A model generated the notes under the pieces. It did not search any database. It was given only the letters and a program-made list of their open reading frames with translations, and was not told where the DNA came from. Shown here one piece after another: positions 504-20,525 of a stretch of DNA of 26,350 bases. Within the stretch, counting starts at the first letter, position 1. Each line of letters begins with the position of its first letter. The stretch is from Candidatus Hadarchaeota archaeon (lineage in GTDB: Archaea; Hadarchaeota; Hadarchaeia; Hadarchaeales; CAZCRN01), in NCBI GenBank assembly GCA_964501125.1, contig CAZCRN010000001.1, positions 1 through 26,350 of the forward strand. Reading direction: 5' to 3'. The position numbers were made by a program, and so were the translations under genes.

Positions 504-582
504 GTGTACAACGAAATCACTATATTCTAAACGAAGCAATAAAGTTGGGGTCGTGGGGTAGCTTGGCCTATCCTTCTGGCTT

Positions 583-609
583 AAGATCGTTCTTCAATGA
601 TCTGCCAAA
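583..609 (+). other. tRNA-Pro intron 1 (27 nt, non-canonical position 33/34)
   Basis: BHB motif: central helix TGGC(577-580)/GCCA(604-607), bulges TT|A and AA|T, intron hairpin AGATC/GATCT. Confidence 0.85.
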
Positions 610-613
610 TGGG

Positions 614-632
614 ACGTAGGCCAACGCAAAAA
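614..632 (+). other. tRNA-Pro intron 2 (19 nt, canonical position 37/38)
   Basis: BHB motif formed after intron 1 removal: central helix TTTG/CAAA(627-630), bulges GG|A and AA|A, outer helix CGT/ACG. Confidence 0.85.
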
Positions 633-732
633 AGCCAGAGACTCGAGTTCAAATCTCGGCGACCCCACCATGCCAAAGTTTAAGTTTATAGGATAGGGCT
701 TTGAGGTTGTGACGAACCTTTGGGTGGGAAAC

Positions 733-1554
733 ATGCGAGTAGCCCTCATAGGCTGCGGCTCGATAGGCACGGTTTTAGCCAGAGCCATCGATACCGGCCA
801 GGCTGGAAAGGCCAAGCTGGTCTGGTTATACGACCTAAAACCCGAGAAATCTAAAGCGTTGGCAAAGAAACTACGATCGAAGCCCAAAATAGCGAGAAGT
901 TCGGCCGAGGTTTTTGCAGACAGGACAGTCGATTTGGTAATCGAAGCGGCCTCGCAGCTAGCGGTAGAACAGTACTCGCTCGATGTTCTGAAATCTGGCA
1001 AGGATTTGATGGTAATGAGCATTGGTGCATTCGGAGATGAAAAACTGCTAGCTAGCGTTCACGAACTGGCTGAGCGCACTGGCCGTAGGATTTACATGCC
1101 TTCAGGCGCGGTGCTCGGCATCGATGGTATAAAAGCCGCGATGTTAGGTGGAATCGACGAGGCGATCTTGACGACCAGAAAACCGCCCGCGGCGCTGAGC
1201 TATAGCAAGTATCTATCCGAACACGGCATCGACCTAACCGATTTGCGGGAGCCTCTAACGGTTTTTGAAGGCCCCGCCCGTGAGGCAGTCAAGGCATTTC
1301 CTAAAAGCGTCAACGTGGCCGCAGCGCTGAGCTTAGCGGGGGTAGGGCTGGACAAGACCAAAGTGCGCATCATTGCCGACCCATCGCTGGATCGAAACGT
1401 TCACCAAATTCGCGTTCGCGGGAAGGCGGGTGAGTTCATCACGGAAGCGCGGAACGTGCCCTCACCCGACAAGCCAGAGACGAGTTACCTAGCGGCTTTA
1501 TCGGCGATCCGAACGCTTCGCAATTTAACTGAGACCATCCAGATCGGAACCTAA
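733..1554 (+). CDS. nadX: L-aspartate dehydrogenase (NAD biosynthesis)
   Basis: N-terminal Rossmann motif MRVALIGCGSIG; EAASQ, SGAVLGIDG, NVAAAL and RNVHQI motifs; adjacent to nadA/nadC. ATG 733 follows an SD-like GGGTGGG. Confidence 0.93.
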   Translation: MRVALIGCGSIGTVLARAIDTGQAGKAKLVWLYDLKPEKSKALAKKLRSKPKIARSSAEVFADRTVDLVIEAASQLAVEQYSLDVLKSGKDLMVMSIGAFGDEKLLASVHELAERTGRRIYMPSGAVLGIDGIKAAMLGGIDEAILTTRKPPAALSYSKYLSEHGIDLTDLREPLTVFEGPAREAVKAFPKSVNVAAALSLAGVGLDKTKVRIIADPSLDRNVHQIRVRGKAGEFITEARNVPSPDKPETSYLAALSAIRTLRNLTETIQIGT

Positions 1555-1610
1555 CTCGGAAATTAATAAAAGTCGACAAATGATTATTTCTACAAGTCCG
1601 GGGGTCAGCT

Positions 1611-2543
1611 ATGAATCCACAGAAGCTTGAGGATAAAATAAAGAAATTGAAGGAAAAGGAAAATGCTGTTATTCTGGCCCACAACTACCAGATACCGGAA
1701 GTTCAGCTAATAGCAGATTTCATCGGAGATTCCTTAGGCCTAGCCCAAGCCTCAGCTAAAGTGGATGCCAAACTCATTGTTTTTGCCGGGGTTGATTTTA
1801 TGGCAGAAACCGCAGCGATGCTGAACCCGGATAAGCTTGTGGTGCTACCTGATCCGGAGGCCGTATGCCCAATGGCGGCACAGCTGCCAGCGGAGGTTGT
1901 GCGTGAGGCCAAGCGCAAGCACCCCAACGCGGCGGTTGTGTTATACGTTAATACTCTTGCTGAGGCAAAGGCCGAGTCAGACGTCGCATGCACTTCTGCA
2001 AATTCACCTCAGATCGTCAATGCGCTCGACGAGGACACGATTCTATTTGGGCCAGACCGAAATCTAGCGTGGTTTGTGCAGCGCCGCTCGGATAAAAAGA
2101 TCATTCCAATTCCCGAAAATGGGTACTGCTATGTCCACAAGATGTTTGCAGCGGCCGACATTGGTCTCCTCAAGGAAAAATACCCGGATGCCGAGGTGCT
2201 CGCACATCCGGAATGTGACCCCGAAGTTCAGAAGCTCGCGAGCCATATCTGCAGCACGAGCCAGATGCTGCTCCGTGCGAAGGCGTCGCCAGCCAAGCAA
2301 TTCATCATCGGCACCGAAGTTGGACTAGTTGGGCGATTACGACGGGAATTTCCGGATAAGGAGTTTATTCCTGCTCTAGAGGCTGCGATATGCGAACAGA
2401 TGAAGAAACACACCTTGGAAAAAGTTTACCTAGCGCTGCGTGACAAAAAGCACGTGGTGCGCGTGCCGCCGAAAATTGCAGAACGCGCGCGCGTGACTAT
2501 CGAGCGGATGCTTGAAATCTCTGGGAGGGCTGCGCGTGATTGA
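1611..2543 (+). CDS. nadA: Quinolinate synthase (4Fe-4S)
   Basis: ILAHNYQ, GDSLGLA, GVDFMAETA, YVNT, CTSAN and HPEC motifs; three cluster cysteines (CPMA, YCYVH, AICEQMK). Confidence 0.97.
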   Translation: MNPQKLEDKIKKLKEKENAVILAHNYQIPEVQLIADFIGDSLGLAQASAKVDAKLIVFAGVDFMAETAAMLNPDKLVVLPDPEAVCPMAAQLPAEVVREAKRKHPNAAVVLYVNTLAEAKAESDVACTSANSPQIVNALDEDTILFGPDRNLAWFVQRRSDKKIIPIPENGYCYVHKMFAAADIGLLKEKYPDAEVLAHPECDPEVQKLASHICSTSQMLLRAKASPAKQFIIGTEVGLVGRLRREFPDKEFIPALEAAICEQMKKHTLEKVYLALRDKKHVVRVPPKIAERARVTIERMLEISGRAARD

Positions 2544-3381
2544 TCCCACAGCGAGAAAAAAAATTCAAGAAATTTTGGCCGAAGACATAGGCTCAGGTGA
2601 TGTGACAACCGAAGCTCTTGTGCCAAGTAAAGTTACAGCCAAGGCTGAGATAATCGCCAAACAATCAGGAATACTGGCGGGGGTGGCCGAGGCCGCCGCA
2701 GCATTCGAGGAGATGGGTGTTCGAGCAAAGGCCCTCAAATCCGATGGGCAGCGAATCAAACCTGGCGACGTGATAATGCGGCTTGAGGGCCCGGCCCGGG
2801 GCATCCTTTCAGTCGAACGAGTGGCACTGAATTTATTGATGCGCATGAGCGGCATCGCTACGGCGACGCGCGAGATGATCGATCGGGCTAGGAAGAAAAA
2901 TCCAAAGGTGATTATAGCAGCCACACGAAAGACGGCCCCGCTTCTGACCTATTTTGATAAACGCGCGGTCAAGGTCGCGGGCGGGGAACCCCACCGGTAC
3001 AAACTCGACGAACAAGTTCTGATAAAGGACAATCACCTCAAACTGGCAGGTTCAGTTGCCCAAGCGGTTCGTCAAGCGCGCGAAGCTGCAAAGGGTAGGA
3101 AAATAGAAGTTGAAGTTAGTAAGCCCAAAGATGCATGTGAGGCCGTGAGAGCGGGCGCGGATGTTGTGATGCTTGACAACATGAGTCCAGCGGATATTGG
3201 TCGTACAATGAAGGCGCTTGAACAGGAGCATTTGCGAGGTCAGGTAACCTTAGAGGCCTCTGGTAGAATCGATCTCTCAAACGTTGAAGATTTTGCATCC
3301 ACGGGTGTTGATATGATCTCATCGAGTTACATGACCATGCGAGCCCCGGCGTTAGACATGAGTCTGGAGATTCGAAGATAG
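2536..3381 (+). CDS. nadC: Quinolinate phosphoribosyltransferase (nicotinate-nucleotide diphosphorylase, carboxylating)
   Basis: AEDIGSGDVTT, ERVALN, TRKT, HR..L...LIKDNH, EVEV, MLDNM and EASG motifs. GTG start after GGAGGG, overlapping the nadA stop. Confidence 0.93.
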   Translation: MIDPTARKKIQEILAEDIGSGDVTTEALVPSKVTAKAEIIAKQSGILAGVAEAAAAFEEMGVRAKALKSDGQRIKPGDVIMRLEGPARGILSVERVALNLLMRMSGIATATREMIDRARKKNPKVIIAATRKTAPLLTYFDKRAVKVAGGEPHRYKLDEQVLIKDNHLKLAGSVAQAVRQAREAAKGRKIEVEVSKPKDACEAVRAGADVVMLDNMSPADIGRTMKALEQEHLRGQVTLEASGRIDLSNVEDFASTGVDMISSSYMTMRAPALDMSLEIRR

Positions 3382-3383
3382 GC

Positions 3384-4511
3384 CTAGGCACCAACAACGC
3401 TGTAAGTTAGATCGCTAAGTCTCCTGATAGCTTCAAGCTTCTCCCTTTTGCCGATTTTCGCTTCCTGAACGGCAGCCTTCAATACTTCATGGGCCTCATC
3501 CATTGCCTTGCGGTCAACTGGAAACGGTGTCCCATCCTTAGAGCCGAACGCGAACGAAAATTTCACCGGATCCTGCCAGCTTGGTTTACATCCGTACATG
3601 AGTTCAGACAACAAAGCGAGCCCGCGCACGGTCGCCAGCCCGATGCCTTTGAAACTCAATAGTTCCTCAAAGTTCGCGGGTTTGAGTTCGTAGGCACGCT
3701 GCATGGCAGTCCAGTCAACTCGGCTTGGGAGGAGCTTGATGTAGGCTATCCTCTGGGAAGGTGGCCCGGGGAACCATTCCTCAAGCGTTCGTTGCCCCCT
3801 GATCTTTGCAGCCCTGAATATAGATCGAATGTGGCTCGGGGAGTGATCGCGAATCAAATCAGTCACAACCTTGCGGCATTCGGTACTTTGCTTAGCAGTC
3901 ATGTTTAAGACCCGATCGTGCCATTGGTCGCCCAAGATCGCGCTGTGAGGTTCATCGACGAAGCTTCGAACTTGGTCGGATAGCCAGTGATAGCGTCTGG
4001 CCGCGTGGATCTTTGGTCGCATCCCCTGCTGCACGACTGCCCACTTCCCCTCATCAGTCACGAATATCGTGTGGTGGTAAATCGGATAACCAGCTTGGAC
4101 TGCAGCGGTGTCAACCTTCGCCGCCATTCGGCTCGCGTAGCGCGCTCGATCTATTTGTTCGGCTGCGAGGTCGAGCTGCTGACCTACCGTCGCTAGCTTG
4201 GCAGGCACTTGTCTGCTCAGCTTGCCTTTTCCCCCGACAGCCGCGATGCCGTGCTTGGCGGGGTCAAGGGCCGAGCGAAGGACACCGCATAACACAGTGG
4301 TTGCCCCCGAGGTACACCACTCCCAACCCAGACATGCGGCTAGACTCTGGAACCAGAGGGGGTCGGAGATACGCGATAAAAAGACATCTGGCCCGTACTC
4401 GTCGATGAGCACGTCGCACACACCGCGCGATAGTTTGATCATGCGTTCGACTAGCCAGGGAGGTGCACGCGTTGCAGCCAAGCGCAATTCAACCGTCGCG
4501 ACCTTGCGCAT
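3384..4511 (-). CDS. DUF763 family protein (divergent)
   Basis: APPWLVERMIKL, SDPLWFQ, GGKG, AKVD, WAVVQQGM, ARRYHW and KDGTPFPV blocks match my recollection of DUF763. Start placed at ATG 4511 because the longer ORF runs into tRNA-Tyr. Confidence 0.85.
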   Translation of the reverse strand: MRKVATVELRLAATRAPPWLVERMIKLSRGVCDVLIDEYGPDVFLSRISDPLWFQSLAACLGWEWCTSGATTVLCGVLRSALDPAKHGIAAVGGKGKLSRQVPAKLATVGQQLDLAAEQIDRARYASRMAAKVDTAAVQAGYPIYHHTIFVTDEGKWAVVQQGMRPKIHAARRYHWLSDQVRSFVDEPHSAILGDQWHDRVLNMTAKQSTECRKVVTDLIRDHSPSHIRSIFRAAKIRGQRTLEEWFPGPPSQRIAYIKLLPSRVDWTAMQRAYELKPANFEELLSFKGIGLATVRGLALLSELMYGCKPSWQDPVKFSFAFGSKDGTPFPVDRKAMDEAHEVLKAAVQEAKIGKREKLEAIRRLSDLTYSVVGA

Positions 4512-4533
4512 CTGGACCCCAATCGATAATCGC

Positions 4534-4549
4534 GCTGAAAGTTTAAGAA
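4534..4549 (+). promoter_or_regulatory. Putative BRE+TATA promoter of the tRNA-Tyr/5S/tRNA-Asp cluster
   Basis: GCTGAAA-G-TTTAAGAA lies about 26-33 nt upstream of the tRNA-Tyr 5' end. Confidence 0.5.
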
Positions 4550-4574
4550 CCTGAAAGTCAGAAAATTGAACGGT

Positions 4575-4677
4575 CCCGCGGTAGCTCAATTTGGTAGAGC
4601 AGCCGGCTGTACGCATGTTTCCGACATGCGGGCTAAAGACCGGCGGGTTGGGGGTTCAAATCCCTCTCGCGGGACCA
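4575..4677 (+). tRNA. tRNA-Tyr(GTA) with a 26-nt intron inside the anticodon, CCA encoded
   Basis: C1:G72 acceptor CCCGCGG/TCGCGGG-A-CCA (archaeal Tyr identity); anticodon stem GCCGG/CCGGC; mature loop CT-GTA-GA; T arm GGGGG-TTCAAAT-CCCTC. Confidence 0.93.
4611..4636 (+). other. tRNA-Tyr intron (position 35/36)
   Basis: Bulges GT|A and AA|A; central helix GGCT/GGCT (two G-U pairs); intron hairpin CGCATG/CATGCG. Confidence 0.75.
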
Positions 4678-4719: not shown

Positions 4720-4845
4720 GGGTTGGCGGTCACAGCGGCGGGGAAACTCCGGCTCTCGTCCCGAACGCCGAAGATAAGCCCGCCAGCGATCTGGACTGTA
4801 CTCTTGTGCGAGAGCCAAGGGGAACTCCAGGACGCTGCCAACCCA
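4720..4845 (+). rRNA. rrf: 5S rRNA (ends approximate)
   Basis: Terminal helix GGGTTGGC/GCCAACCC; conserved CCGAAC...GAAG.TAAGCC and GTACT...GCGAG...GGGAAC segments; followed by a T-run. Confidence 0.95.
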
Positions 4846-4891
4846 CTTTTGTAGAAATGCATATTACGACAATTGACAAACCTAAATCGGT

Positions 4892-4969
4892 GCCCCGGTA
4901 GTGTAGTCGGGTCTATCATGCGGCCCTGTCGAGGCCGCGACTCGGGTTCAAATCCCGACCGGGGCGCCA
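4892..4969 (+). tRNA. tRNA-Asp(GTC), CCA encoded
   Basis: GCCCCGG/CCGGGGC-G-CCA; anticodon arm CGGCC-CT-GTC-GA-GGCCG; T arm TCGGG-TTCAAAT-CCCGA. Confidence 0.97.
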
Positions 4970-5061
4970 TTTTCGCTCGAAAGCCTTAAATCTGGAAATA
5001 ATAGACTTAATAAGCGAAAAGCATAAAAAGGGTAGTTTTCAGCTACGTTTTACCCTCGGAG

Positions 5062-5136
5062 GGGCCCGTGGCGCAGTCTGGTCAGCGCACCGGCCTTTTA
5101 AGCCGGGTGTCGGGGGTTCAAATCCCTCCGGGCCCG
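5062..5136 (+). tRNA. tRNA-Lys(TTT), CCA not encoded
   Basis: GGGCCCG/CGGGCCC-G; D stem GCGC/GCGC; anticodon arm CCGGC-CT-TTT-AA-GCCGG; T arm GGGGG-TTCAAAT-CCCTC. Confidence 0.96.
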
Positions 5137-5414: not shown

Positions 5415-8400
5415 GTGGTGCAATTGCAAGAAGCGAAGTTGCAGGATACTTGGCCATTGCTTGGGGCTTTCTTCAAGGAGAAGGGTTTGGTTAGGCAACA
5501 CCTTGATTCCTATAACGAGTTCATCGAGCACCGACTACAGCAAATTGTTGACGAGATCGGTGGGATAGAGCTAGAAGTCGAATGGCTCGACGTCGTGTTC
5601 GGTCGCATCCGGATAGGTGAGCCATCGGTTAAGGAGGCCGATGGTTCGCGCCCCACCATATTGCCAGCGCAGGCACGGTTACGTAATCTCACGTACTCTG
5701 CGCCAATTTTCCTCGAAATGATTCCGGTAGTCCGAGGGCGCCAACGTGAACCGGTCGAGGTTTACATCGGCGAAATGCCAGTAATGTTGAAGTCAAAAAT
5801 TTGCGGGTTAAGCAAGATGAGCGATGAAGAGCTGATCGAAGCTGGCGAGGACCCACTCGACCCCGGTGGCTATTTCATAGTTAACGGTTCCGAGCGCGTG
5901 ATCGTTACACAGGAAGACCTCGCATCGAACCGTATCTTGATTGAACACGACGAACGTACGGCGCTAGAAGTTTCAAAAGTTTTCTCGACCCACCGTGGTT
6001 TTCGTGCACTGGTCATAGTCGAACGCAAAAAGGATGGTCTGGTGCGTGTCACGTTTCCAGCCGTACCTGGCCACGTGCCATTAGTGGTACTGATGCGGGC
6101 GCTTGGGCTCGAGAGCGACCGTGAAATCGTCGATGCGGTGTCGGATGATCCCGAGATCGTTAAGGAATTGTTCGAAAACCTGCAAGAGGCCATGGAGGTC
6201 AAGACAGGAGAGCAAGCGCTTGATTATATTGGCCGCAGAGTTGCGATCGGGCAGACGAGAGAGTACCGATTGCGCCGCGCTCAGGAGGTGCTGAGAAGGT
6301 ACCTGTCACCACATATTGGCTCACGCCCTGTGGATAACATCCATAAAGCCTATTACCTCGGCCGGATGGCCGAGCGAGCGATAGAGCTTGCACTTAGGCG
6401 TCGCGGTGTCGACGACAAAGACCACTACGTCAACAAGCGGCTGAAACTGGCCGGCGACTTGCTCGAGAGTATGTTTAGGTTAGCTTTCATCAACCTCATT
6501 CGCGACATCAAGTATCAGCTTGAACGTGCAGCTGCCCGCGGCCGAGAGCCGAACCTTCGGACCGCGGCACGTGCGGACGTGCTCACCGAGCGCATTCGAC
6601 ATGCCCTTGCAACAGGCAACTGGCCCGGCGGCAGGACTGGTGTAAGTCAGCTGCTGGATCGCACCAACTATATCGCCACTCTATCGCACTTACGCCGTGT
6701 CGTATCGCCCCTCAGTCGCAGTCAACCGCATTTCGAAGCTCGCGATTTGCACCCGACCCACTGGGGTAAGATCTGCCCATGTGAGACTCCAGAAGGCCCG
6801 AATTGTGGGCTGGTTAAAAATTTGTCATTAACAGTTGAAATCTCAACTGGCACCGACGAGGAAAAAGTCGAACGCGTTTTGTACAAATTAGGAGTCACGA
6901 AAATACAGAAAGGTAGCGAGCGCCGGGGCAAGGCAGGCGTTTACATCAACGGCCGCTTAATAGGGGTAACCGAAAACGGGCAAATGCTCGCCACCAAGCT
7001 CAGGGAACGTCGTCGCAAGGGTGCTGTTGATGAGCAGGTAAACGTCGCTTATAGCGCGGGCACGAACGAGGTAATGATAAATACAGACTCGGGTCGTGTG
7101 CGCAGATCACTGGTCGTGGTCGAGGGCGGAAAGCCGCTTTTGACGCAAGAGCATATCGAAAAAGTTAAGTCCGGCGAGCTGACCTGGCCCGATTTAATTC
7201 GGACTGGAGTGATTGAATACCTCGACGCTGAAGAGGAGGAGAATTCGTACATCGCAATTACAGAAGAGGGCCTAACACCTGAGCACACACATTTGGAGCT
7301 TAACCCAGGTTCGATTTTGGGCATATGCGCCGCGTTGATCCCATATGCCGAGCACAACCAATCGCCACGCAACACGTACGGCGCCAATATGGCCAAGCAG
7401 GTGCTGGGTATCCCAGCTACCAATTTCCAAGCTCGTCTTGACACCCGTGGACATTTCCTACACTTCCCGCAGACCTCCATGGTTTGGACGAAGGCCATGG
7501 ATGTGATTGGATTTGATCGTCGGCCAGCTGGGCAAAACTTCGTTGTCGCCATCATGTCATATGGAGGCTACAATATGGAAGACGCGCTCATCATCAACAA
7601 GAGCTCAATCGATCGCGGTCTCGGCCGTTCAACTTTCTTCAGACTCTATGAGGCCGAGGAAGGCCGTTACCCCGGTGGGCAACAGGACAAGTTCGAAATA
7701 CCGACAGAGGAAATCCGCGGATATGCAGATACGAGCCTCTATCGAAACCTTGGGGACGATGGCTTAGTTGAGATAGAATCCGAAGTGCGTGGCGAAGACA
7801 TCCTAATCGGGAAGACAAGTCCGCCGAGGTTCTTGGAAGAAGTCGATGAATTTGGCATAGCAGTTGAACATGGCCGCCGAGAGAGTTCGATAAGGGTTAG
7901 GCCTAGTGAGGGGGGTATAACTGACATGATTCTGCTTAGTGAGACGGTTGATGGCAATAGGCTGGCACGTGTTCGTGTGCGCGACTTGCGGATACCTGAA
8001 ATCGGTGACAAATTTGCATCTAGGCACGGTCAGAAAGGTGTCATAGGTATAGCGCTTGATGAGGCGGACATGCCTTTTACGGAAGACGGGATCGTACCCG
8101 ATCTAATAATCAATCCGCATGCTGTACCATCGCGCATGACAGTCGGGCAACTATTGGAGATGATTGCAGGCAAGGCCGGCGCGATGGCAGGGCAGCGAAT
8201 AGATGGCACGACGTTCAGCGGTACACCCGAACAGCAACTGCGTGAAATGCTGCGCAAACACGGCTTCAAGGATACTGGCAAGGAAATCATGTATAATGGA
8301 ATGACCGGGGAAATAATACAAGCGGACATTTTCATCGGCGTCTGTTACTACCAGAAGTTACACCACATGGTGGCAGATAAAATCCATGCCCGTGCCCGTG

Positions 8401-17237: not shown

Positions 17238-17643
17238 ACATCCCTCAGATGTGGGTTTTCGGGCCTATGGCCGCGACTTGGCAGAAGCATTCGAGAACGC
17301 TGCGGCCGCGCTCTTCGAGGTGATGGTCGATACGAGCAAGGTTGAGCCGCGAGAAGAAATCTCGATCGAGTTGGAAGCCGAAGACGAGGGGGCATTACTC
17401 TACGATTGGCTCGATCGGTTGCTCTATTTTCACGATGCCCGGGGGCTCGTGATGTCGAAGTTCAAAGTAGAGGAACTATCAAGTTCGGAACGGGGTTTCA
17501 AGCTCAAGGCAAAAGCTTGGGGCGAACGATTCGACGCCGCTCGCCATCCCGAGCGAACCGCCGTCAAGGCGATGACTTATCACATGATGCAGATCAAACG
17601 TGAGCGCGATCGCTGTTGGGTACAAGCGGTTGTAGATGTCTAA
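17215..17643 (+). CDS. Archease (RtcB activator)
   Basis: [11 protein letters not shown]...G..L.EAF.NAA.ALF and VKAMTYH..........QAVVDV motifs; adjacent to rtcB. Confidence 0.95.
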
Positions 17644-17702
17644 GGCAATCCTTTTCAATAAAATGGTTTATCTGCGCTGCCTATATTCTTGTTAGGGATG
17701 GT

Positions 17703-20525
17703 ATGGTTTGGACCGGAAAAATCAAGCAGATCGATGAAGTTCGTTGGGAAATCCCGCAGGACTATAAACGTGGGATGCGAGTGCCGGCCCGGATTTTTGC
17801 GGACAAAGCGCTGTTAGATGAGATACGTAGGGATCTAACACTTGAACAATCGGCAAATGTATCATTTCTGCAAGGCATTTACAAATACTCGATTACGCTT
17901 CCGGATGGGCATCAGGGTTACGGTTTTCCGATTGGAGGCGTTGCGGCGACCGATGCGGAGACTGGCGTTATAAGTCCGGGCGGGGTCGGCTACGACGTGA
18001 ACTGTTTGGTTCCCGGTACCCTCATCCTCACACGCGATGGGTATCGCAGACCGATAGGTGATTTGAAAAACTGTTGGGCCCATTCTAAGCTCACGGTTTT
18101 CAACCTAAACGATCATGAAGCGGAAAACGCTTCGATAATTCGATTCATAGAGTTTCCTCCAAATACAGAACTTCATCGTCTACGCACTGCCAATGGCAGA
18201 GAGATCACCCTCACAGGAGACCATCCAATTTTAACTCCTAGGGGCATGTGTTTAGCACGCAAAATCCATCCAGGTACCCCGGTAGCTGTTTATCCATTTG
18301 AAGGGGTAGATTACAATCCTCCGCCCGATGAAACGATACTTGAAGAGAGGGATTTTGAGCCATCTGTCGCTAAGGAATTAAAGAAGCGTGGTTTTCTACC
18401 CATTCACATGAACCACCCGAAAATCGGCACCTTAGCACGATTAGTCGGTTACATCCTTGGAGATGGCTGGTTTAACACTTGGGTAGAGAGACGTAAAGAT
18501 CGGAAAAGTCCGCGGCATAGATTGATAGTCGGTATCTCTGGCGAGATTGATGGTTTAGAGAAACTTAGGGAAGATATCCAGAGTCTTGGATTCAAGCCTT
18601 CCCGGATTTATTCGAAGAGTCGCAGGCAGACGATAAAAACACCATACGGGTGGTTCGAAACGAATTGTTCCGAAAATTGTATCCACATTTCATCGAAATC
18701 GCTCGCTACCTTGATTAACAAACTAGGTGTTCCTCTTGGCAGCAAAGTCTTCGCCGATTTTGAGGTTCCTTCTTGGATAAGAAGTGCTCCCTTATGGATT
18801 AAAAGAAACTTTCTGGCGGGTTTTTTCGGCGCGGAGCTGTCCAAACCATCAGTGGTCAAAGAGCATCCATACACCTTCAACGTACCGTCCATAATCATTT
18901 CAAAGAGAAGAAATATCAAGGATTCGGGTTACAAATTTTTAAATCAGATCCGCGCATTACTTGGTGAGTTCGGGATAAAAACTCTTGAAATTTATGAAAT
19001 TCCATTGACCAAGAGCACGGTGGGTCTCAGGCTCCCCATCTCAAAAAATGATGAGAATCTTTTGAGGCTTTGGTCTAAGATCAGTTACGAATTCAATGAA
19101 GAACGTCGCCTGCGCGCAGCTCTAGCGGCTGAGTACTTGCGCCTGAAGTTAAAACACAGAGGAATGTTGAAAGATAGGTCAAAGCCGATCGCCTTCCCAA
19201 CTTTTAATGAATATGTCGAAAAAACGAAAGCGGAGCTGGGTCGCTCGGGGTTGGTGTACGATATCGTTGTAAAGAAAGAGATTGTCCGCGGATTTAAAGG
19301 ATTTGTGTATGATTTCACGGTTAACCACGAGGATCACAACTTCGTTGCAGACTGCTTCGTCGTTTCAAACTGTGGCGTCCGCTTACTGCGCACGGACCTC
19401 AACCGCAAAGACATCGAGCCTAAGCTGCGCGAGCTGGTCGACGCACTTTTCAGAAACGTGCCCTCCGGGCTAGGCAGCAGAGGAAAAATGCGGCTGACCA
19501 TGGCACAGTTGGATGAAGTACTAGAACGCGGGGCTCGCTGGGCTGTCGAAAATGGCTTCGGCTGGCCCGAGGATCTCGAGCGGCTGGAGGAAGGAGGGGA
19601 GATGGCTGGCGCAGATGCCGCGCGGGTCAGCGTTCTAGCGAAGCAACGTGGTTTGCCGCAGCTCGGTAGCCTCGGCTCTGGGAATCACTTCCTCGAAATT
19701 CAATGCGTCGACAAGATCTTCGACCCTGATGTCGCACAAAAGTTTGGCCTAACGCACGAGGGGCAGGTCACGGTCATGATTCACTGTGGCTCTCGTGGTT
19801 TGGGCCACCAGGTTTGCTCCGATTATCTGCGCACGATGGAACATGCAGTTCGCCAATACAAAATCGAGTTGCCCGATCGGGAGCTTGTTAATGTTCCTGT
19901 CACTTCCCCTGAGGGTCAAGCTTACTTCTCGGCAATGGCCTGCGCCGCGAACTACGCCTGGGCAAATCGCCAGATGATCGTGCACTGGGTGCGCGAGTCT
20001 TTCGAACATGTGCTTGGACGGGATGCCGAGAGTTTGGGACTACACATAGTGTACGACGTTGCCCACAACATCGCAAAGCTCGAGGAGCACAAAATAGACG
20101 GCGAGCGGCGTAAGGTCTATGTTCACCGCAAAGGAAGTACGCGCGCTTTCCCGCCCGGTCACCCGGACGTGCCCTCCATATATCGCGAGGTCGGTCAACC
20201 CGTGTTGATCCCCGGGGATATGGGTACGGCCTCCTATGTTTTAGTTGGCACCGAGCAAGGGATGCGGGAGACCTTTGCCTCAACTGCCCATGGTTCTGGG
20301 CGCCACCTGAGCAGGACTGCCGCGCGAAAGCGATACTGGGGTCAGGACATCAAGCGCAGGCTCGAAGCTCAAGGGATTATCACCCGCTGCGCGAAGATCT
20401 CAGTGATGGCGGAGGAGTGTCCTGAGGCTTATAAGGACGTGGACAAGGTGGTAAAAGTTAGCCACGATGCAGGGATAGCCCGGATGGTCGCTCGGTTAAA
20501 GCCGATGGGAGTTGCTAAGGGTTAA
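17703..20525 (+). CDS. rtcB: RNA-splicing ligase RtcB precursor (940 aa; 484 aa after intein excision)
   Basis: [22 protein letters not shown]|[32 protein letters not shown] and HGSGR motifs. Start at ATG 17703 after GGGATGG. Confidence 0.97.
18003..19370 (+). mobile_element. Intein (456 aa) with LAGLIDADG homing endonuclease domain in RtcB
   Basis: Starts [10 protein letters not shown]; block [12 protein letters not shown]; block [10 protein letters not shown]; block [11 protein letters not shown]; ends [19 protein letters not shown]; +1 residue is Cys. Removal restores [16 protein letters not shown]. Confidence 0.96.

Follow-up and report, generated by a model that had tools for sequence, protein, structure and literature searches.

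Pairing between an intron and the exon beside it defines or presents the splice sites in the anticodon-intron pairing of eukaryotic and archaeal canonical tRNA introns, as it does in the internal guide sequence of group I introns. In archaea, tRNA genes with multiple or nested bulge-helix-bulge (BHB) introns, and the order in which such introns are removed, have been described (PMC3728597, PMC4090602, PMC4033280). In some of these organisms the BHB of the last intron cannot form until the others have been processed (PMC3728597). Reviews of the work of Sugahara et al. 2007/2008 place nested and multiple BHB introns in Thermoproteales and other groups (cited via PMC3728597 and PMC4090602). Long helper helices occur beside the BHB of the split, tri-split and permuted tRNAs of Nanoarchaeum equitans and Caldivirga maquilingensis (PMC4390854, PMC3218864). 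The intron of Haloferax volcanii pre-tRNA-Trp, according to the summary given of Singh et al. 2004 in PMC4090602, pairs with the exons of its own tRNA as a box C/D guide. Hadesarchaea are reported to carry an alpha4-type EndA endonuclease with an extra loop, together with many disrupted tRNA genes (PMC5829648).

The locus described here, from a member of the Hadarchaeota, is a tRNA gene with two nested introns in which the downstream intron is complementary to the D-loop. In the full-text literature available to us, a limited corpus without the primary papers of 2003-2008, we found neither a helix between D-loop and intron described nor any case in which an upstream intron is aided by a downstream one. 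As far as could be found, it is the help given by a downstream intron to an upstream one that is new here, ordered nested introns being already known.

A tRNA-Pro(UGG) gene split by two nested introns

The window, that is the whole stretch of 26,350 nucleotides that was analysed, contains at positions 547-670 a tRNA-Pro(UGG) gene split by two EndA-type (BHB) introns. The Rfam tRNA model matches positions 547-667 at 38.4 bits and places an insertion of 49 nt in the anticodon loop. ARAGORN did not call the tRNA-Pro gene in the unspliced window, and the intron boundaries were therefore derived from BHB geometry. The sequence spliced twice in silico is recognized by ARAGORN as tRNA-Pro(UGG), 78 nt long including CCA, and folds as a cloverleaf. 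The parts of the gene are as follows.

520..527, + strand: putative archaeal promoter, a TATA-like element (ctatattc) read from the sequence, about 20-27 nt upstream of the tRNA start
547..582, + strand: exon 1, with the acceptor 5' strand, D-arm, anticodon-stem 5' strand and nt 32-33 (Rfam alignment, BHB scan, ARAGORN on the spliced product)
583..609, + strand: intron 1, 27 nt, at the non-canonical site 33/34; the precursor's best strict BHB
610..613, + strand: exon 2, UGGG, the anticodon UGG plus G37; invariant in 28 of 28 orthologues, but required by the search pattern
614..632, + strand: intron 2, 19 nt, at the canonical 37/38 site; BHB seen only after in-silico removal of intron 1
633..670, + strand: exon 3, with nt 38, anticodon-stem 3' strand, variable loop, T-arm, acceptor 3' strand, A73 and an encoded CCA at 668-670 (Rfam, ARAGORN)
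547-553 / 660-666: acceptor stem
556-574: D-arm
576-580 / 634-638: anticodon stem, CUGGC / GCCAG
643-659: T-arm

The TATA-like element lies where an archaeal TATA box is expected; the upstream sequences vary between orthologues.

The BHB of intron 1 has a 4-bp central helix (577-580 x 604-607) and two 3-nt bulges (581-583 and 608-610). In its strict register the inner helix is 8 bp long and the outer helix 3 bp. The inner helix covaries strongly among orthologues, six of its eight pairs having changed on both sides. Scanning of the full precursor found no BHB bracketing 614-632, and one appears once 583-609 is deleted and U33 is thereby joined to UGGG (610-613). This second BHB has an outer helix of 7 bp, which is the anticodon stem, and an inner helix of 3 bp. 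Its central helix is built from nt 32-33 and nt 34-35, which intron 1 splits, so that the two introns are nested.

Intron 2 is complementary to the D-loop

The earlier note had observed that GTAGGCCAA in intron 2 (616-624) is the antiparallel complement of TTGGCCTAT in the D-loop (563-571). This is correct, with eight Watson-Crick pairs plus G616-U571. The same helix is found in the unconstrained minimum free energy (MFE) fold of 547-667 (121 nt; -51.0 kcal/mol, z = -4.4 against 200 shuffles), where it is lengthened by 561-562 x 626-627 across a bulged C625. The MFE fold is not a cloverleaf: the helix between D-loop and intron 2, hereafter the clamp helix, stacks on the outer helix of the intron 1 BHB. 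G18 and G19, whose normal docking site is the T-loop, are tied up in this clamp helix. The elements that exchange partners between this alternative fold and the cloverleaf are listed below.

561..570, + strand: long-range helix, D-loop strand (nt 15-21), pairing with 617-627 in the MFE fold
617..627, + strand: anti-D-loop segment of intron 2, with C625 bulged (MFE fold); nearly invariant in orthologues
571..574, + strand: D-stem 3' strand, which in the alternative fold pairs with 611-614 as the outer helix of the intron 1 BHB
577..580, + strand: switch element, the anticodon-stem 5' strand, with 604-607 (central helix of BHB 1) or 634-637 (anticodon stem) as partner
604..607, + strand: GCCA in intron 1, a mimic of the anticodon-stem 3' strand (central helix of BHB 1)
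634..638, + strand: anticodon-stem 3' strand, competing with 604-607 for 576-580

The segment 611-614 comprises G35, G36 and G37 and the first nucleotide of intron 2. Of 20000 shuffled versions of intron 2, 25 equalled or beat the observed 9-bp run when matched to the D region; with all of exon 1 allowed as partner, 181 of 20000 did so. The duplex between D region and intron amounts to -17.0 kcal/mol in tRNA-Pro, compared with -3.8 to -6.8 kcal/mol in five single-intron tRNAs.

Conservation and covariation in orthologues

Orthologues were collected by scanning the genome collection and the metagenome collection once each with a pattern in which only exon features, an insertion before UGGG and the T-loop were fixed. 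The pattern left free all of intron 2 as well as five of the eight core pairing positions of the D-loop (563, 564, 567-569), and it permitted the absence of intron 2. The scans returned 41 orthologous loci, which together with the window give 28 distinct sequences. Both introns are present in all 41 loci, although the pattern allowed the loss of intron 2, whose length ranges from 13 to 20 nt. The named records are all Hadarchaeota or Hadesarchaea metagenome-assembled genomes with the exception of L010 (JASEGJ010000001.1). This record carries the label Candidatus Hodarchaeaceae, an Asgard family, yet its tRNA-Pro and tRNA-Thr are of the Hadarchaeota type, and the label may be a naming or binning mix-up.

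The pairing between D-loop and intron 2 is retained in 27 of the 28 distinct orthologues, with a contiguous run of 8-9 bp in 22. In the window type, the D-loop UUGGCCUA is accompanied by intron 2 UAGGCCAA or UAGGUCAA. A second type combines D-loop CUGGUCUA with intron 2 UAGACCAG. Intron 2 of the second type is set apart from that of the window type by three substitutions and one insertion. Two of the three base changes are precisely those that compensate, and the third (A614 to G) keeps U571 paired. The third type has a 17-nt intron 2 containing (A/G)AGGUCA(A/G)GC, in which the bulged C625 is lost, resulting in nine contiguous base pairs with 561-569.

A MAFFT alignment put the rows with the 17-nt intron 2 one column off the pairing register, and it was replaced by a hand-registered alignment with N as filler. 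On this second alignment, which leans towards the structure, 94.5% of the cells of the 10-bp helix are paired over the 28 distinct orthologues, compared with 18-38% when the partner is slid by 1-3 columns. Two of the ten pairs have changed on both sides (563:624, U-A/C-G; 567:620, C-G/U-A) and three show wobble-compatible variation. The counts are UA 14, CG 7, UG 3 and other 3 for 563:624, CG 20 and UA 7 for 567:620, and GU 15 and GC 12 for 566:621. Both double changes probably go back to one divergence of two clades, and would then represent few independent covariation events. About 7-8 single changes are uncompensated, mostly at the helix ends (A or C at 563; C or A at 569; C, A or G at 617; G at 622 in L023). 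In one sequence, L032, intron 2 is degenerate, 13 nt long, and forms no more than 4-5 bp with the D-loop; the intron 1 BHB has a predicted probability of 0.06 there, yet the gene looks intact. RNAalifold returns the cloverleaf as consensus structure rather than the alternative fold.

The core of intron 2 is nearly invariant, though it is a mere apical hairpin loop in its own BHB; the loop of intron 1, unlike it, has diverged freely. The conservation and covariation that the earlier note had proposed to seek in relatives are therefore present, the helix being largely paired and twice doubly compensated, in few independent events. The complementarity of D-loop and intron 2 is real, conserved and under selection.

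Register of the outer helix

The helix flanking the intron 1 BHB had been placed by the earlier note on C576-G611, U575-G612 and U574-G613. These three pairs can indeed be drawn in the window as a strict hBHBh' motif. However, 575:612 is paired in only 12 of the 28 sequences, and in the window this 3-bp helix (574-576 x 611-613) is 3.7 kcal/mol worse than a shifted register, so that it was rejected as the conserved one. The register that is conserved, and favoured by the energy model, consists of U571-A/G614, C572-G613, C573-G612 and U574-G611, paired in 28 of 28 sequences (571:614 is UA in 20 and UG in 8). It leaves 575-576 unpaired opposite the 3' bulge and thus corresponds to a relaxed motif rather than to strict hBHBh'.

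Position 575 (nt 26) covaries with 639 (nt 44), the pair being UA in 11 sequences, GU in 9, AU in 7 and UG in one. Watson-Crick or wobble pairing here lengthens the anticodon stem and is unusual for 26:44. In L004 (2602-2716, - strand), positions 577 (U to C), 607 (A to G) and 637 (A to G) have changed together, leaving both alternative helices intact. This triple change indicates that 577 is under selection to pair with both partners and provides direct evidence for a two-state design.

Predicted dependence of the intron 1 BHB on intron 2

The two states were compared with partition-function models, in which P is the probability of the central helix of BHB 1 and ddG the energy of the BHB-forced fold minus that of the anticodon-stem-forced fold. 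Nearest-neighbour models of this kind ignore tRNA tertiary structure, modifications, proteins and co-transcriptional folding. The four variants of the window gave the following values.

Window, wild type: P 0.97, ddG -3.7 kcal/mol
Window, intron 2 deleted: P 0.05, ddG +2.5 kcal/mol
Window, 617-624 replaced by its complement: P 0.00, ddG +5.0 kcal/mol
Window, 617-624 replaced by its complement plus compensating D-loop change: P 0.93, ddG -1.7 kcal/mol

Their ranking is unchanged at 60 and 75 C. The comparison of folding with and without intron 2 that the earlier note had suggested thus gives, for the window, a fall of the central helix from 0.97 to 0.05. Over the 28 orthologues the mean P is 0.77 for the native sequences, 0.29 with intron 2 deleted and 0.19 with its core shuffled. 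The dependence is not uniform. Six orthologues with A at nt 26 have P of about 0.8 with or without intron 2, and the clamp is therefore not always needed in the model. Two others behave in the opposite way to that predicted for a clamp, P being 0.90 without and 0.14 with intron 2 in L026, and 0.76 without and 0.56 with it in L009. The proposal of the earlier note that intron 2 holds the precursor in a non-cloverleaf fold presenting intron 1 is accordingly well reproduced by the model of the window, but it does not extend to the six indifferent orthologues and is reversed in L026 and L009.

When intron 1 is removed from the window sequence, the RNA is predicted to go over entirely to the anticodon stem (clamp 0.04 bp, stem 1.00). 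In the lineage with the 17-nt intron 2, the clamp helix persists in the model once intron 1 has been spliced out. A second BHB for intron 2 within the alternative fold was also considered and rejected, the 613/614 site lying inside a helix there. Since the BHB of intron 2 needs intron 1 to be gone and the BHB 1 fold depends, in the models, on the helix supplied by intron 2, the dependence runs both ways. The interdependence of the introns put forward in the earlier note is upheld at this level.

A second case: tRNA-Thr(UGU)

A two-intron tRNA-Thr(UGU) gene lies about 1 kb from the tRNA-Pro gene in L025, and the same gene was found at five other loci.

L025, 10377-10479, - strand: tRNA-Thr(UGU)
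L001, 706-808: tRNA-Thr(UGU)
L012, 274-376: tRNA-Thr(UGU)
L029, 7637-7739: tRNA-Thr(UGU)
L033, 3841-3943, - strand: tRNA-Thr(UGU)
L010, 5811-5915, - strand: tRNA-Thr(UGU)

Its introns are located at 30/31 (15-16 nt) and at the canonical 37/38 site (14-15 nt). The D-loop, GCCUGGU, is unlike that of tRNA-Pro and forms a 7-bp helix with the first seven nucleotides of the canonical intron. These read GCCAGGC, ACCAGGU or ACCAGGC in three divergent lineages and always pair with the D-loop of their own tRNA. The two variable intron positions change a G-U pair to A-U and a G-C pair to G-U, and pairing is kept. In the MFE fold the helix adjoins the outer helix of the BHB of the upstream intron (D-stem 3' strand GAG with nt 32-34 CUU). 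Predicted P(BHB 1) is 0.96, 0.43, 0.26 and 0.79 with intron 2, at most 0.03 without it, and 0.04-0.23 when the part of intron 2 that pairs with the D-loop is shuffled. The duplex energies of the two-intron cases are -14.2 and, for tRNA-Pro, -17.0 kcal/mol, compared with the -3.8 to -6.8 kcal/mol of the five single-intron tRNAs. The tRNA-Thr gene is an independent instance of the same architecture.

In two of the tRNA-Thr versions the model keeps the clamp after intron 1 has been removed. The further step envisaged in the earlier note, that intron 2 then refolds into its own BHB, is therefore predicted for the window type, but not for these two versions or for the tRNA-Pro lineage with the 17-nt intron.

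Neighbouring genes and a probable mobile insertion

Several other genes of the window were identified around the tRNA-Pro gene or are related to tRNA splicing.

733-3381, + strand: cluster of aspartate dehydrogenase, NadA and NadC (NAD biosynthesis), directly downstream of tRNA-Pro
3384-4616, - strand: DUF763 protein, after the NAD cluster and on the opposite strand
4575-4674, + strand: tRNA-Tyr(GUA) with a single 26-nt intron at the non-canonical site 35/36 (or 36/37, the A being repeated)
4722-5136: 5S rRNA, tRNA-Asp and tRNA-Lys, followed by rpoB and rpoA
17616-20525, + strand: 969-aa RtcB tRNA-splicing ligase with an intein (Pfam RtcB 578 bits; Intein_splicing 42 bits)

A search for contigs encoding the NadX and NadA of the window gave no match. 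The tRNA-Tyr gene was missed by ARAGORN in its unspliced form, and its intron has no complementarity to the D-loop. The RtcB protein would be, from its profile matches, the enzyme that ligates the exons of these tRNAs. Ten ORFs of the window were scanned by profile, and none of these ten is EndA.

Some orthologous loci carry a partial copy of the first 32 nt of tRNA-Pro (16 nt identical in L021), on the same strand and about 0.87-0.97 kb upstream of the full gene. Partial copy and insert together occupy the following positions.

L024, 7323-8212: partial tRNA-Pro copy and insert
L020, 5727-6615: partial tRNA-Pro copy and insert
L019, L036, L006 and L021/L041: partial tRNA-Pro copy and insert

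The partial copy and the tRNA-Pro gene are separated by an ORF of 259 aa, which encodes a LAGLIDADG-like domain (PF14528, 23.3 bits) and ends with a stop codon located within the tRNA gene. The arrangement resembles an insertion of the homing-endonuclease type by which the 5' part of the tRNA gene became duplicated. Its breakpoint is 4 nt from the 5' splice site of intron 1; the window is without the insertion. The possibility that the insert of about 0.9 kb is a giant spliced intron was rejected, as there are no flanking helices for any in-frame BHB. One of these loci, L006, also includes at 6512-6628 (- strand) a tRNA whose anticodon is CAU and whose 37/38 intron, about 42 nt long, contains CUGA and GAUGAUG motifs. 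To judge by these motifs, this intron may be a box C/D-like guide.

Proposed mechanism and alternative explanations

In the mechanism that we propose, intron 1 could be presented as a BHB only if 577-580 pair with GCCA (604-607), the mimic within intron 1. The D-stem 3' strand 571-574 would then pair with 611-614, and the fold so obtained would compete with the more stable, genuine anticodon stem. Pairing of the apical part of intron 2 (617-627) with the D-loop (561-570) would lengthen the outer helix, weak with its 4 bp, to a rod of about 14 bp, tipping the balance towards the fold that presents intron 1; intron 2 would in this way act as a cis-acting clamp. Once EndA has cut and RtcB has ligated, intron 1 would be gone, the rod would lose its central and inner helices, and the anticodon stem would form. 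Nucleotides 32-35 would then be able to pair with the 3' end of intron 2, creating the canonical BHB for the second cut.

To stabilize, as a cis clamp, the fold that presents intron 1, and so to make the two introns mutually dependent, is in our opinion the most likely role of intron 2, and on the modelling probably the right one. This view draws on the two BHBs and their order, on the conservation and covariation of the clamp helix, on the dependence of the fold on that helix and on its recurrence in tRNA-Thr, all of which are read from the sequences and the models. That EndA needs the clamp and that the RNA refolds in the way described is what we infer from the predicted folds.

The main rival explanation, which we consider unlikely, is that the pairing was selected for another purpose and that its help to intron 1 is incidental. 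The helix might keep the precursor out of the L-shape and so prevent its premature use or modification, it might mark the precursor for another factor, or the excised and probably circularised intron 2 might act in trans on tRNA-Pro or other RNAs. Such purposes are suggested by the sequestering of G18 and G19, by a core of intron 2 that is conserved like an exon, by the lineages in which the model keeps the helix after intron 1 is removed, and by the free tRNA introns with base-pairing functions that are known in yeast (PMC13079951). However, in tRNA-Pro and tRNA-Thr alike the helix prolongs the outer helix in the BHB of the upstream intron, the five single-intron tRNAs compared, from the same genomes, have no such helix, the complementarity is always to the intron's own tRNA, and the models tie the helix quantitatively to the formation of BHB 1. 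An intron-encoded box C/D guide was rejected separately: RUGAUGA is found in neither intron and in 0 of 28 orthologues, and intron 2 measures only 13-20 nt.

Less probable than this rival, and in our estimate improbable, is that the complementarity is a relic of little function. Intron 2 would then derive from an inverted copy of the D-loop, or would match it by chance through its palindromic GGCC core, and close relatedness would have preserved the match. GGCC is self-complementary, the chance level for a single sequence against the whole of exon 1 is about 1%, the orthologues all come from one phylum, the two double changes may amount to a single event, and there are several uncompensated mismatches. 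A relic does not readily account for both double changes being exactly compensatory, nor for lineage-specific deletions that remove bulged nucleotides and so lengthen the helix. The free divergence of the intron 1 loop, not shared by the core of intron 2, and the matching intron 2 of an unrelated tRNA-Thr with a different D-loop likewise argue for function. The alternative fold might also be a modelling artefact, the precursor remaining close to a cloverleaf while the EndA of Hadarchaeota, an alpha4 enzyme with an extra loop and a supposedly broad specificity, cuts a relaxed local motif without any long helix. The cloverleaf obtained as RNAalifold consensus, the existence of L032 without a clamp, the six orthologues that do not need one in the model and the cleavage of relaxed motifs by EndAs with specific loops (PMC5829648) are in line with this. 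Yet with the anticodon stem formed, 577-580 cannot take part in the central helix of BHB 1, the scan shows 583-609 bracketed by no other BHB-like motif, and 577, 607 and 637 have changed together in L004. We therefore give an artefact little credence, and again less than the main rival.

If intron 2 does serve as a clamp, one intron apparently serves the removal of another, a testable case for the old open question of what tRNA introns do. It suggests a route to non-canonical introns where the endonuclease is thought to prefer a well-formed BHB, the RNA itself supplying the helper helix at the cost of a temporarily unfolded D-arm. The mutual dependence of the introns is a prediction; all 41 related loci have both. 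It is possible, and we advance it tentatively, that canonical 37/38 introns are kept as cis folding clamps whose anti-D-loop loops expose the unstable BHB of a non-canonical intron, and that such a mutually dependent pair is a general rule in Hadarchaeota, perhaps also in other archaea whose endonuclease is of the alpha4 type. Such a rule, if true, would explain both the tolerance of non-canonical introns and the joint persistence of the introns. Genes of this kind are missed by ARAGORN and have low Rfam scores, and the rule could aid the annotation of disrupted tRNA genes.

Comparison with known systems

As with the nested introns of Thermoproteales, the tRNA-Pro gene includes several EndA-type introns, some of them non-canonical, and the last BHB has to wait, which imposes an order. 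In the known nested introns this dependence is one-way, the later intron waiting for the earlier, whereas here the later, canonical intron apparently helps the earlier one too. The helper pairing, moreover, is with the D-loop, an exon element far from the splice sites, and the lineage is Hadarchaeota rather than Thermoproteales.

The split and permuted tRNAs resemble this locus in that a long helix beside the BHB joins the splice sites and stabilizes the motif for EndA. In those tRNAs both strands of the helix belong to intervening sequence and pair in trans between transcripts, while here the D-loop, a part of the mature tRNA, pairs in cis with a neighbouring intron. The H. volcanii pre-tRNA-Trp intron likewise pairs with exon nucleotides of its own tRNA and directs a maturation step. 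It guides 2'-O-methylation, however, whereas intron 2 of tRNA-Pro lacks RUGAUGA and has a splicing fold, not a modification site, as its target. Finally, the anticodon-intron and group I pairings join the intron being spliced to the adjacent exon; in tRNA-Pro the pairing is between a different intron and a distant exon element, and the chemistry is catalysed by protein.
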